NCBI GenBank assembly: GCA_965262915.1
Contig: OZ253564.1
Span: 320,001 to 384,000 of the forward strand
Reading direction: 5' to 3'
DNA: 64,000 bases
Origin: Candidatus Spongiisociaceae bacterium
GTDB taxonomy: Bacteria > Actinomycetota > Acidimicrobiia > Spongiisociales > Spongiisociaceae
The notes under the pieces are model-generated. The model was not told the origin of the DNA. It saw only the letters and a program-made list of their open reading frames with translations, and did not search any database. Positions 30,659 through 53,704 of this stretch are shown here, in pieces. A program made the position numbers and the translations under genes. Every line of letters starts with the position of its first letter. Within the stretch, counting starts at the first letter, position 1.

Positions 30659-30681
30659 AGGTGCCAGGTGCCAGGTGCCAG
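30659..30681. repeat. heptamer repeat (AGGTGCC)x3
   Basis: Same unit as the 52874 array. Confidence 0.85.
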
Positions 30682-30775
30682 TCCTCGACGATGGGTTCTG
30701 TCGCCACCGACGGCACGGACAGGACACCAACCCAGCCCAAAAAACACCGAAAATCCTTCAGTCCCGCCAGTCACC

Positions 30776-30805
30776 ACTGACACCTGACACCTAACACCCG
30801 ACACC
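30776..30805. repeat. degenerate heptamer repeat (CTGACAC)x4
   Basis: actgacacctgacacctaacacccgacacct; variant of the same unit on the opposite strand. Confidence 0.7.
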
Positions 30806-50371: not shown

Positions 50372-51380
50372 ACCCCGCGGATCGCGACAGCACATTCGGT
50401 GCCGGCGCCGCCGAACCGCTGTTGTCGGTGCGCGACCTGCACGTCGAGATCGACACCGAGGACGGCGTGCTCACCGCGGTGAACCGGATGAGCTTCGACC
50501 TCTACGCCGGTGAGGTCCTAGCCATCGTGGGCGAGTCCGGGTGCGGCAAGACCATGACTGCCCTGTCCATACTCGGGCTCCTTCCCCGCAAGGCGGCGCG
50601 TCTGGTACGCGGCGAGGTAAGGCTGGGCGGCGAGGATCTGCTGGCCGCGCTACCGCAACGGATGCGGCAGGTCAGGGGAGCGGAGATCGCCATGATCTTC
50701 CAGGAACCGCTCACGGCACTCAACCCGGTGCAACGGGTCGGTGACCAGATCGCCGAGATGATCCGCACCCACCGACCCGTGCGCCGGTCCGAGGCCCGCC
50801 GCCGCGCCGCCGGGTTACTCGACCGGGTGGGGATACCCGACGCGGCCCGGCGGGCTCGCCGGTACCCGCACGAACTCTCCGGCGGGATGCGCCAGAGGGT
50901 GATGATCGCCATGGCGATCACCTTGGAACCGGCGGTCCTGATCGCCGACGAGCCGACCACCGCGCTCGACGCCACGGTTCAGGCCCAGGTGCTCGAAGTC
51001 CTGTCGGACGTGCAGCGGGGGCTGTCCGGCGCGATGGTCCTGATCACCCACGATATCGGTGTGGTGGCCGACCTCGCCGACCGGGTGGTGGTGATGTACG
51101 CGGGCCGCTCGGTGGAGCAGGGTTCCGTCTACGACGTTTTCGAGCGGCCCCTCCATCCCTACACGGCCGGCCTGCTCGGCGCCGTACCCCGAGTGGACGG
51201 AACGGCCGACCGTCTCAATCCGATCACCGGAACGCCCCCACCCTCATCGTCCTTCCCGATGGATGCGCCTTCGCTCCCCGCTGCCACATGGCCACCGAGA
51301 TCTGCCTGGTGCAGAAGCCGGAACCCCGGCCGTCCACCGGCGAGACCGGGTCGCCGGCCGTTGCCTGCCACCATGCGTAG
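50368..51380 (+). CDS. peptide ABC transporter ATPase (OppD/DppD-like; frameshift ~51238)
   Basis: GESGCGKT, LSGGMRQR, IADEPTTALD, HPYT; C-terminal GCAFAPRC...VACHHA* in the shifted frame. Confidence 0.92.
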
Positions 51381-51411
51381 TCAGGTGCCAGACACCCCAG
51401 GAGCGTAAATG

Positions 51412-52632
51412 TCAAGCTGCGGCTCGGTCGATGGTGGTTCGGTGTGCCCATGCGGTGTGTTCGTTGTAGGGGGTTTGGTGTTTGAGGCAGCCGTGGAGGA
51501 TGCCGACGAGTCGGTTGGCGAGGGCTCGGAGTGCTTGGTGGTGGAGGTCGTCGGCTGCTCGGCGTTTGTCGTAGAAGGCTCGGGCTCCTGGACTGTTCTT
51601 TAGGGAACAGAACGCCCATTGGTCCAGGGCGTCGTAGAGACGCCGGTTACGGACCTGGCGAGCCAGGACAGCGTGCTTGCGGCCTGACGCCACTGTGATG
51701 GGCGACGTGCCGGCGTAGTTCCTGCGAGACTTGGCGCTGGTGTAACGGTCGGGGTCGTCCCCGAACTCACCGAGCGCCCGGGCGCCGAGCACAGTACCGA
51801 GTCCTGGCTGAGACAGGTAGATGTCGGCGTCCGGGTGTTCTCTAAAACGGGTCTCGAGGGTTGCTTGGAGGTCTGCGATCTGGCGGTTGGTTTCCACAAT
51901 GAGTTTCACCAGTGCCCCAACAGTCGCCCCGAAGGCGTCCGCGACCGGCCCCGGCGCGGTGAGATGGCGGGTACGGAGACCTTTCTGTATGCGGCGGGCA
52001 ACCTTGTCGAGGTTGCGTCGCCGTCCGCCCCTCTGTAGCGCTGCTCGGATCTGGGGCAGTGTCAGGCGGGCGCCCAGGATTGGGGTGGGTGCCCGACCGA
52101 GTATGGCCACAGCGTCGCGATGGGCCAGGTCATCGAAGGTTTCCAGCGCTGCGGGATAGTACTCGCGCAGGGCGTTGCGGACTTGGTTGGTGTGACGCGT
52201 CCGAGCCCAGATCAGGTTCTGATGCGTTCTGGCCATGATCTTGATCGCGTCTGATTCGGGGCTGTCACCGGCCACCGAACGATGGTTGTGACGGTCGGTG
52301 CGTACCAAATCAGCTAACACCTTGGCATCACCGCGGTCTGATTTCGCTCCGCCCAGGCTGTGACGGTCCCGGTAGCGGGACACAGCCCTAGGATTGATCG
52401 CATACACCAAATAGCCCGCTGCGATGAGCGCACCCACCCACAGCCCACGATCGGTCTCGATCCCTACCACCACCTCAGCTGCATCCGATGCGTGTTCGGC
52501 GACCAACTCATGGAAGCGGGCTATACCTTGGATCCCTTCCGGGAGATGGGCGAAACCCAGCCGGGTCCCATCCTCGTCCATCAGATACACATCATGGTGG
52601 CCCTCAGCCCAGTCGTTACCCACAAATATCAT
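51412..52632 (-). CDS. IS110 DEDD recombinase
   Basis: VGNDWA, GIET, KSDRGDA, AGTSPITVASG (catalytic Ser region); intact; GGAGG RBS. Confidence 0.96.
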   Translation of the reverse strand: MIFVGNDWAEGHHDVYLMDEDGTRLGFAHLPEGIQGIARFHELVAEHASDAAEVVVGIETDRGLWVGALIAAGYLVYAINPRAVSRYRDRHSLGGAKSDRGDAKVLADLVRTDRHNHRSVAGDSPESDAIKIMARTHQNLIWARTRHTNQVRNALREYYPAALETFDDLAHRDAVAILGRAPTPILGARLTLPQIRAALQRGGRRRNLDKVARRIQKGLRTRHLTAPGPVADAFGATVGALVKLIVETNRQIADLQATLETRFREHPDADIYLSQPGLGTVLGARALGEFGDDPDRYTSAKSRRNYAGTSPITVASGRKHAVLARQVRNRRLYDALDQWAFCSLKNSPGARAFYDKRRAADDLHHQALRALANRLVGILHGCLKHQTPYNEHTAWAHRTTIDRAAA

Positions 52633-52679
52633 CCCTTCCTCCTTCAACGGGGATCGATCCTTGCCGAGCTGTAGAACAC

Positions 52680-52866
52680 GCCTGGCGGCGACCTAATGGA
52701 TCAGTGCTCTGTGGCACGCCACCCCATGAGCGCTACAAGCGGCCCTCGCGAACCGGCCGGGGTACGATCTGGCACTAGGAATCAGCGTTCCGGGTGCCAC
52801 CAGTACTCACCGGCCAGCCAGCTCAACCACCACACCCTCCCAGACAAACCAGCAGAAGTGGTGGAC
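52680..52866 (-). ncRNA. IS110 bridge RNA (5' hairpin, target-binding loop, donor-binding loop)
   Basis: Guides TGGCACC and GTGCCAG match the target; TGGGGTG and CCATTAG match the donor junction; each pair flanks a 4-bp hairpin. Confidence 0.88.
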
Positions 52867-52873
52867 CCCCATT

Positions 52874-53055
52874 AGGTGCCAGGTGCCAGGTGCCAGGTGC
52901 CAGGTGCCAGGTGCCAGGTGCCAGGTGCCAGGTGCCAGGTGCCAGGTGCCAGGTGCCAGGTGCCAGGTGCCAGGTGCCAGGTGCCAGGTGCCAGGTGCCA
53001 GGTGCCAGGTGCCAGGTGCCAGGTGCCAGGTGTCTGGGGTCAGGTGCCAGGTGTT
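52874..53055. repeat. heptamer tandem array (AGGTGCC) x22 perfect plus ~4 mostly degenerate units
   Basis: Perfect 52874-53027 (154 bp); one further unit on the other side of the IS (51383-51389). Confidence 0.97.
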
Positions 53056-53098
53056 CGCGTTGCCTGGCCACTTGCCACCGTAGACCAATCGATACATA

Positions 53099-53341
53099 AT
53101 GATGGTTATGGAAGGAATGCTCGCTGCCATGATCGGCCTCGTAGGCGCCCTCCTGAGCGCACTCCTCATCTGGATCCGCTCCGACATCAAGGCCCAGCGC
53201 GTCGAGATGAACTCGGCCCTCGAAGGCATGAGGGCCACGTTGACCGAGCACGGCGAGCGGCTCGCCCGCATCGAGACCACCCTCGGAGCCCCGGCGTCCT
53301 CCCCCGAAACCGCCGCTGCAGAAGCGGTCGTCACCCCCTGA
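53099..53341 (+). CDS. small TM plus coiled-coil protein, paralogue 1
   Basis: EGMLAAMIG...WIRSDIK...EHGERLARIET. Confidence 0.75.
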   Translation: MMVMEGMLAAMIGLVGALLSALLIWIRSDIKAQRVEMNSALEGMRATLTEHGERLARIETTLGAPASSPETAAAEAVVTP

Positions 53342-53419
53342 CCAACCCCCACCCCGCATACCCGGCGCGACCGGCCCTCCGGCACCCGGCCTTGCCCTCC
53401 CTGGAACCAATGTTGTATA

Positions 53420-53704
53420 GTGTTGGATATAGAAGGAATGCTCGCTGCCATGATCGGTTTCGTGGGTGTGCTGGTGAGCGCACTCCTCATGTGGATCCGC
53501 TCCGACATCAAGTCCATCCGGACAGAGACGAACTCCCGGTTCGACGCCATGGACCGCCGGTTCGACACGGTGGACCGCCGATTCGACACCGTGAACACCA
53601 TCCTGGCCGAGCACGGGCAACGGCTCGCCCGCATCGAGACCGTCCTCAGCGTCCCGGTATCTCCTCCCGAGCAAGCCTCCACGGAACCCGCCGTCGCCGG
53701 CTGA
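53420..53704 (+). CDS. small TM plus coiled-coil protein, paralogue 2 with RFDxxDR heptads
   Basis: Tandem paralogue of 53099..53341; RFDAMDRRFDTVDRRFDTV. Confidence 0.78.
   Translation: MLDIEGMLAAMIGFVGVLVSALLMWIRSDIKSIRTETNSRFDAMDRRFDTVDRRFDTVNTILAEHGQRLARIETVLSVPVSPPEQASTEPAVAG

Follow-up and report, generated by a model that had tools for sequence, protein, structure and literature searches.

A probable bridge-RNA insertion sequence of the IS110 group aimed at a tandem heptamer repeat in an uncultured acidimicrobiial genome

Described RNA-guided insertion sequences and the element in the window

IS621 of Escherichia coli (PMC11208160, PMC11208158) has a two-domain DEDD/Tnp recombinase, a CT core and a long left end, which encodes a bridge RNA. 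This RNA contains a 5′ stem-loop and two loops, of which the one for the target varies and the one for the donor is conserved. In each loop the 5′ guide reads like the top strand, and reverse-complementing the core plus the right half gives the 3′ guide. The circular form re-forms a promoter across the core, and the target is a multicopy intergenic repeat, the REP (repetitive extragenic palindromic) element. In ISPpu10 and ISPpu9 of Pseudomonas putida, which are REP-directed IS110 elements, bridge-RNA pairing selects one conserved intergenic sequence, to whose many copies all insertions map, and this target has a stem-loop as an extra structural gate (10.64898/2026.03.19.712850). The IS1111 group with its seekRNA has related DEDD recombinases, an element-encoded guide RNA and multicopy targets; its RNA is carried in a long right end, and it has subterminal inverted repeats of 7-17 bp (PMC11208160). 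Here we describe an element of this kind in Candidatus Spongiisociaceae bacterium (Acidimicrobiia; assembly GCA_965262915.1, contig OZ253564.1). The window is the whole stretch of 64,000 nucleotides (nt) at positions 320,001 to 384,000 of that contig, and the element is located in it at one end of a 25.7-copy (CCTGGCA)n array.

The element is very probably an insertion sequence (IS) of the IS110 group that works like IS621 and is aimed at a tandem heptamer. At the level of sequence, every defining feature of the IS110 group was looked for and found. With IS621 it shares the recombinase domains, the CT core, the left-end RNA with its variable and conserved loops, the sense of the guides, the promoter at the circle junction and a multicopy intergenic target; for IS621, both the junction promoter and the rules of pairing follow PMC11208160. 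It differs from IS621 in that the protein similarity is only distant, in that it is known from sequence alone, in that its target is a tandem heptamer and not a REP element, and in that its two target guides are complementary to each other, so that a closed loop is predicted for the free RNA. Unlike that of ISPpu10 and ISPpu9, the target shows no evident hairpin and consists of a simple direct repeat. The layout of the IS1111 group was not found, the right end being 20 nt long (counted past the stop codon) and the RNA lying in the left end of 241 nt (up to the ATG). The element thus belongs to a known system of RNA-guided recombination and is not a new kind; what is unusual is the tandem-repeat target, the self-complementary loop and the series of reprogrammed guides. 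No report of a microsatellite-directed bridge RNA was found in the literature searched, though the lists of natural guides and targets in the supplements of PMC11208160 might contain one, and the relevant works on tandem repeats in the IS110 literature concern tandem copies of the element or of its cargo.

On the minus strand the left junction reads ...CTGGCAC-CT-AATGGGGG (core C at 52875, core T at 52874), and the right junction reads ...CCTGGGGTGT-CT-GGCACCTGAC, that is ...GGGGTGT-CT-. The last CT of the array is the left core of the insertion, and its last full heptamer is the left target (LT). The left flank and the right target (RT) together reconstruct the empty site CTGGCAC-CT-GGCAC, and as the neighbours of CT are not the same at the two junctions, nothing beyond CT is shared as core. 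The original prediction, which was made from the letters of the stretch, had given the empty target as TGGCAC-CT-GGCAC and the donor junction as GGGGTGT-CT-AATGG; both were confirmed at their minus-strand coordinates, and the guide 7-mers of the two loops, the small hairpins, the closing stem and the 5′ hairpin were all found where it had placed them (Table 1).

The window lies inside a single contig of 5.06 Mb, in which 11 full-length copies of the element (c1-c11, the window copy being c1) were found at 83-100% identity, together with fragments. c1 and c2 stand at separate loci and differ at 9 of 1,486 positions, a sign of recent mobility. A CT core at both ends, with no longer target duplication, was found throughout c1-c10. 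In c11, ATGCTC precedes CT at both ends, in addition to the core, and belongs to the right end of that copy. The c11 subfamily (c11 at genome 290120-291611; a second locus, L015, at 4804556-4804822) has a different right end, ...CCTGGGGATGCTC-CT, which makes the left donor half of this subfamily identical to the left target half; the 5′ donor-loop guide does not match that right end.

Table 1. Coordinates of the element, its predicted RNA and the neighbouring repeat in the window
Feature	Position	Strand	Basis
IS110-group insertion sequence body, 1,482 bp between two CT cores	51392..52873	-	junctions read; ends mapped for 11 copies
(CCTGGCA)n heptamer microsatellite	52874..53053	-	Tandem Repeats Finder; period 7, 25.7 copies, 96% matching
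Right core CT (51391-51390) and right target GGCACCTGAC	51380..51391	-	sequence; covariation set
5′ hairpin CCACCAC...GTGGTGG, alignment columns 13-48	52828..52863	-	consensus fold; compensatory changes
Target-binding module, stem GGCCGG..GTAC/GTAC..CCGGCC, apical hairpin GGAA/TTCC	52752..52818	-	sequence, alignment, consensus fold, covariation
5′ target guide (LTG) TGGCACC	52799-52793	-	sequence
3′ target guide (RTG) GTGCCAG	52775-52769	-	sequence
Donor-binding module, invariant apical hairpin GTGC/GCAC	52674..52747	-	sequence, alignment, consensus fold, covariation
5′ donor guide (LDG) TGGGGTG	52726-52720	-	sequence
3′ donor guide (RDG) CCATTAG	52699-52693	-	sequence
TTGACA (-35-like) hexamer, right end	51410..51415	-	junction computation, 10/11 copies; sequence
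Recombinase gene, 406 amino acids from ATG at 52632 (MIFVGNDW...)	51412..52632	-	Pfam, NCBIfam, IS621 structure match, ORF lengths
Rfam RF02464 (Ms_AS-4) match, antisense to recombinase gene	51730..51811	+	87.6 bits, gathering score 50, E 1.3e-13

Guides and insertion sites change in step

The 240-nt left ends of the 11 copies were aligned. The scaffold was nearly invariant, and variation was concentrated in the two target-guide stretches of the first loop and, less so, in the two guide stretches of the second, which is the pattern described for IS621 (PMC11208160). The guide loops changed in step with the flanks of the copies, down to single bases. The 3′ target guide (RTG) was GTGCCAG beside an RT of GGCAC in c1 and c2, GTGTCAG beside GACAC in c3-c6, GTGCTAG beside AGCAC in c8, and CTGATAG beside ATCA in c7, c9 and c10. 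The 5′ target guide (LTG) was CGGCACC for an LT of CGACAC in c6, AGGCTCCT for an LT of AGGCTCCT (AGGCTC-CT) in c7, c9 and c10, and ATGCTCCT for an LT of ATGCTCCT (ATGCTC-CT) in c11. All eight copies with GRCAC-type guides were located at CTGRCAC-CT-GRCAC sites, most of them within heptamer arrays, as a check of the flanks of the genomic copies had been expected to show. The RTG tracked its target by strict Watson-Crick pairing. The LTG kept a G opposite the A of the left target in six of the eight microsatellite-directed copies, giving a G·T wobble on the bottom strand. This is a stepwise natural reprogramming in one genome, in which the RTG passes from GGCAC to GACAC to AGCAC and one G-containing LTG serves both variants through the wobble.

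The donor guides of c1 agreed with the ends of the element: the 5′ donor guide (LDG) TGGGGTG matches the left donor (LD), and the 3′ donor guide (RDG) CCATTAG is the reverse complement of CTAATGG. All four guide 7-mers together were obtained in 0 of 20,000 mononucleotide shuffles of the 234-nt left end, and both target 7-mers together in 65. The common donor loop (CATGGGGTG / CCATTAG) was found in 7 of the 11 copies.

In genomes of the same genus the family was present with other guides and other sites, for example an LTG of CACCCTCC with an LT of CACCCTC-CT, and the RTG reverse complements CTAGCCC, CTAGCT and CTAGAT stood beside right flanks that start identically. For 22 distinct sites in four genomes (G000, which is this genome, and G001, G005 and G006 of the same genus), the guides matched their own sites at a mean of 10.1 of 12 non-core positions versus 6.4 for non-cognate sites, and none of 10,000 permutations reached the total; because copies of one guide class are kin, the independent events are fewer than 22, and the permutation figures overstate their number. 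This set was drawn from 30 scanned loci, of which L027, L028, L056, L057 and L060 were omitted for want of a loop-scaffold match, one element because its right end was not in the locus, and L009, L062 and L065 as duplicate flanks. In 51 distinct, more distant relatives, the LTG-LT matches had a mean of 4.86 of 7 versus 2.38 when shuffled (0 of 10,000). These relatives remained from 71 aligned matches; excluded were duplicates and matches that lacked a CTAAT start, had fewer than 12 nt upstream or had loops of another length. Guides therefore covary with targets in this genome, in three further genomes of the genus and in the more distant relatives, and together with the helix covariation given below this supports the LTG/RTG/LDG/RDG layout of an IS621-type bridge RNA, which the original prediction had assigned to the left end. 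Within this evidence the single-base guide switches inside lineages carry the most weight.

Predicted RNA, self-complementary loop and activity

The consensus fold of the 11 copies (RNAalifold) consisted of a 5′ hairpin and a long-range stem enclosing two modules, each built of a stem and an internal loop topped by a small apical hairpin, and it left the guide columns unpaired. Among these copies compensatory changes were found in 0 of 74 predicted pairs. Since same-genome copies are too alike for compensatory change, relatives were brought in. A covariance model was built from 8 copies with this consensus structure, the guide columns left unpaired, and was searched against 73 loci encoding recombinase relatives of 55-85% protein identity; the records of these loci name Rhodococcus, Nocardia, Gordonia and Mycobacterium, among others, and metagenome-assembled genomes of Acidimicrobiia. 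In 71 of the 73 loci the model found a match, nearly always of full length, upstream of the recombinase gene. In the alignment of the relatives (64 distinct sequences) 93.1% of cells were paired versus 37-44% with the partners slid; fitting the alignment to the model biases it towards the structure, but the gap to the slid controls is still large. Compensatory changes were observed in 53 of 62 pairs, including all 14 pairs of the 5′ hairpin (helix 1), and none of 500 shuffles reached any of the measures. The left ends of the relatives begin with a conserved CTAATGG. These actinobacterial IS110 elements thus have the same left-end RNA architecture as the window copy and differ from it in their targets, which are not heptamer arrays.

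Single-sequence folding gave z-scores of -1.39 and -0.19. Fold stability is thus not enough to set the RNA apart, and the argument for it is placed on covariation, which backs the architecture that the region had been expected to adopt. An Rfam scan of 51000-53400 found no bridge-RNA family, only Ms_AS-4 (antisense) and a sub-threshold guanidine-II match, and the RNA was therefore modelled de novo.

LT plus the first core base and the core plus RT are the same heptamer. With such a period-7 target the LTG and RTG are therefore reverse complements of each other, and the free target loop is predicted to be closed. The ViennaRNA minimum-free-energy and centroid folds of c1 indeed paired TGGCAC with GTGCCA, which makes the target module a continuous hairpin. 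Taken by themselves, these folds would allow that the first loop is a plain hairpin containing a chance or captured inverted heptamer pair and is no guide loop at all. We regard this as very improbable, because the sequences of sibling copies at the same columns (AGGCTCC/CTGATAG, ATGCTCC/ACATAG) lack self-complementarity and agree with the differing flanks of those copies, because the consensus fold leaves these columns unpaired, and because the self-complementarity follows arithmetically from the period of the target. In the target loops of the relatives no period-7 self-match was found among 53 distinct sequences, in which at most 5 of 7 positions agree versus 6 of 7 in c1.

The recombinase matched PF01548 (DEDD RuvC-like, N-terminal) over the full profile (residues 9-165, E 7.5e-34) and PF02371 (Tnp, C-terminal) with E 1.7e-9, and it scored 181.6 bits against NCBIfam NF033542, 'IS110 family RNA-guided transposase' (cut-off 140). 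The IS621 transposase (8wt6, E 1.3e-6) was its sole sequence relative in the PDB. The alignment with it retains the D of GNDWA, the E of GIETD and both D of SDRGDAKVLA, which we take to be catalytic residues, and places ...VASGR of the recombinase against ...YESGS of IS621. A conserved serine in the C-terminal Tnp domain is mentioned for IS110-group recombinases (PMC11208160). The open reading frame (ORF) spans 51412-52647, with a stop codon that overlaps the TTGACA hexamer; it is full length in c1, as had been claimed for the window copy. The antisense Rfam match covers a conserved part of the recombinase gene. Ms_AS-4 is an actinobacterial antisense small RNA, and the match may mean that IS110 transposases have a conserved antisense regulator, or only that this Rfam family models transposase sequence.

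When the circle junction was computed, a TCTAAT arose across it, with TTGACA 17 nt upstream; the pair was present in 10 of 11 copies, as a match to the promoter consensus and no more. No TTGACA-TCTAAT pair was found in the integrated state. The arrays were also considered as a source of a read-in promoter and were rejected, since no -35-like hexamer stands 16-18 nt from the junction-side hexamer when the element is integrated. In the proposed mechanism the element would excise as a circle, its right end joining its left end across CT, and the resulting sigma-70-type promoter, TTGACA-17 nt-TCTAAT, would drive a bridge RNA of roughly 215 nt and the downstream recombinase gene. The RNA would be made up of the 5′ hairpin and two internal-loop modules, the second of which would pair with the circle junction through its LDG and RDG. 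The target is two adjacent units of the (CCTGRCA)n heptamer, and the DEDD/Ser recombinase would exchange strands at CT. We infer that the RNA is transcribed, that recombination depends on it, that the element is active at present and that landing in the microsatellite is of selective value.

Apart from the kinship of the copies and the fitting of the alignment mentioned above, several observations weigh against an element that works in this way. The base opposite the core T is mismatched in both 5′ guides of c1 (LTG ...CACCc, LDG ...GTGgCg), and LD position 7 is mismatched too. The latter position is mismatch-tolerant in IS621 (PMC11208160); the mismatched core-T guide base of this copy is a difference from IS621, as is its RTG match of 7 nt. 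Four of the 11 copies (c6, c9, c10 and c11) have a variant donor loop, GAGGGGGTG and/or CTGCTAG (alignment columns 148-150 and 178-180), which matches their own ends less well, the element ends being unchanged; in c9 the loop is a mosaic of the common and variant versions. On our own reading, pairing by the variant RDG would be kept up, with two wobbles and one mismatch. The predicted self-pairing of the guides could hinder their use: the ensemble cost of opening the target loop was 13.7 kcal/mol for c1 and c2, 8.7-11.9 kcal/mol for c3-c6 and c8, and 3.7-4.1 kcal/mol for c7, c9, c10 and c11, whose targets are not tandem. The ORF is truncated in two of the 11 copies, to 263 amino acids in c6 and 344 in c11. 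Contigs from public runs break at the element ends, and those covering the region showed no circle junction, no empty site and no readable transcript end, though such contigs cannot exclude the first two. The contigs from RNA libraries on the element are few short pieces (52678-52741), mostly from the donor-binding module and possibly DNA carry-over; run X19 gave 7 pieces, with the top bin at 52680-52734, and run X20 gave 1. Both donor-loop versions are also present in the RNA-library contigs (loose ends at 52711-52712).

The opening cost, the core-T mismatches, the missing junction and empty site and the broken ORFs would also be expected from a genuine bridge-RNA element that is now resting or disabled, by its self-paired loop or its core mismatches, and whose flank match records a past insertion. 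This seems to us possible but rather unlikely. The ORF of c1 is intact and the copy has a near-identical twin, c2, at another locus; all eight insertions of the self-pairing lineage lie at matching targets, which indicates that the guide design worked repeatedly; and the public-run contigs are incapable of showing rare junctions. With at least eight insertions of this lineage at matching sites, and with c1 and c2 so little different, self-pairing is evidently no bar to function. We keep to the reading of a working IS621-like element aimed at the heptamer. A more tentative idea, for which we see only a modest chance, is that the self-closing loop acts as a natural gate, opened only by the recombinase or co-transcriptionally, and that the enzyme may drive inversions or deletions between arrays. 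Such a gate would keep off-target use down, the array for its part offering many overlapping registers; as for rearrangement, the same enzyme faces about 200 registers in about 47 arrays, together with the resident copies.

The heptamer repeat family and other target classes

In this genome the heptamer forms a repeat family that is dispersed and mostly intergenic. There were 92 exact runs of at least two heptamers, 64 runs of at least three, the latter in 47 loci, and 199 exact registers of TGGCACCTGGCAC, the 13-mer specified by the c1 guides. Only 7 of the 47 array loci lay inside an open frame (open 150 nt beyond both sides) versus 76% of random places, and the arrays are therefore mostly intergenic. 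Given this dispersal, the family would provide hundreds of equivalent, probably harmless landing registers, and the depletion of arrays from open frames suggests that the microsatellite may serve as a 'safe harbour', as had been proposed. The window array itself starts 10 bases past the stop codon of an ABC-transporter ATPase gene and ends 46 bases before a small ORF with a promoter-like site at 53072-53100.

Triple-heptamer windows numbered 205 in this genome (G000), 4-8 in three genomes of the same genus and 0 in 37 other relatives. The 37 include three single-contig genomes of the genus and the unpublished genome G039, which entered only the tallies of family matches (1 match) and arrays (0 arrays), its locus L035 being used in no analysis. 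These counts indicate that the repeat expansion and the GRCAC guides are both lineage-specific, and the guides may be read as adapted to a locally abundant repeat. The same counts could also mean that the arrays were produced by the element, for example through repeated aberrant or half-site recombination, and are not a pre-existing site, since the huge expansion is found only in the genome with GRCAC-guided copies. Tandem expansions associated with IS110 have been reported, but with units of at least 50 bp (10.64898/2026.08.14.744561). We consider such an origin improbable. At 44 of the 47 loci with three or more heptamers there is no adjoining IS end, and many arrays flank an unrelated dispersed element of ~95 bp in inverted orientation. 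Insertion requires two pre-existing units, which precise excision restores. G005 and G006 carry at least eight family copies and no arrays of their own targets. Heptanucleotide repeats are reported to be the commonest among 5-11-nt repeats in many prokaryotes and are ascribed to polymerase slippage, and abundant intergenic ones are known from other bacteria (PMC4679880). A repeat that preceded the element and to which its guides became fitted is the reading retained here.

Other copies were found in other repeats. The site of c7, c9 and c10 (AAGGCTC-CT-ATCA) lies within a larger repeated element and is also present as two empty copies. c11 stands at ATGCTC-CT-ATGG, the end of another multicopy element (…ATGCTCCTATGGTTGTCAA…) with some 25 copies or more, and the target 11-mer ATGCTCCTATG occurs at 32 sites in the genome. 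What the family aims at is thus multicopy DNA generally. The microsatellite is one of three target classes in this genome, and the family is not exclusively microsatellite-directed. The original prediction was supported, as the checks proposed with it on the fold, on guide-target covariation and on the flanks of the copies did not refute it; the sites of c7, c9, c10 and c11 qualify it.

Several further observations concern fragments of the family and the surroundings of the arrays. Three left-end stubs of 23-50 nt (2945802, 4518974 and 4967433; L019, L020 and L024) stand at CAGCACTCT-CCT sites, a target class of the family in related genomes that is used by no full copy in this one. A solo right-end fragment at genome 1548778-1548990 (L016) adjoins a (CCTGAGA)n array, another variant of the heptamer. 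At genome 2736776-2737498 (L017/L013) a rearranged copy consists of the first 91 nt of the left end, breaking off within the target loop, then ~280 bp of host sequence and then the last 349 nt of the element, and the same host sequence recurs after both pieces; either DNA was truly rearranged at the element or the assembly is at fault. The ~95-bp dispersed element stands between inverted heptamer arrays, (GTGYCAG)n - element - (CTGRCAC)n, at 30661-30790 of the window (genome 350661-350790) and at least 12 other places. It gave 13 blastn matches of 76-100% identity, and c6 and c8 are inserted in heptamers directly beside such elements; it showed no significant Rfam match and no significant fold stability (z -0.76). 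A higher-order repeat of ~430 bp at genome 3561218-3561643 consists of heptamer pairs alternating with GGGGTTGG-type units at a period of about 28. Directly downstream of the window array, on the plus strand, two paralogous small ORFs (53099-53341, 80 amino acids; 53420-53704, 94 amino acids) each have an N-terminal hydrophobic segment and share an ...AEHGxRLARIETxL motif. Because the region's only promoter-like site separates the array from the first of them, array length might affect their expression.

One genome holds a graded series of copies: the guides change by single bases, and the insertion sites change with them. The points that stand out are the apparent G·T wobble of the LTG in six of eight copies, the strict Watson-Crick pairing of the RTG, and target guides that pair with each other. 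Since bridge recombinases are being engineered as programmable genome-writing tools, natural cases of guide drift and tolerance are useful. If self-paired guides still work, a design rule would be relaxed; if the closed loop is a gate, it would be a specificity device. With a microsatellite as landing site, tandem repeats are added to the natural safe sites of RNA-guided elements, which include REP elements, transposon ends and attC sites, and for this uncultured Acidimicrobiia lineage the arrays are marked as likely hot spots of rearrangement.

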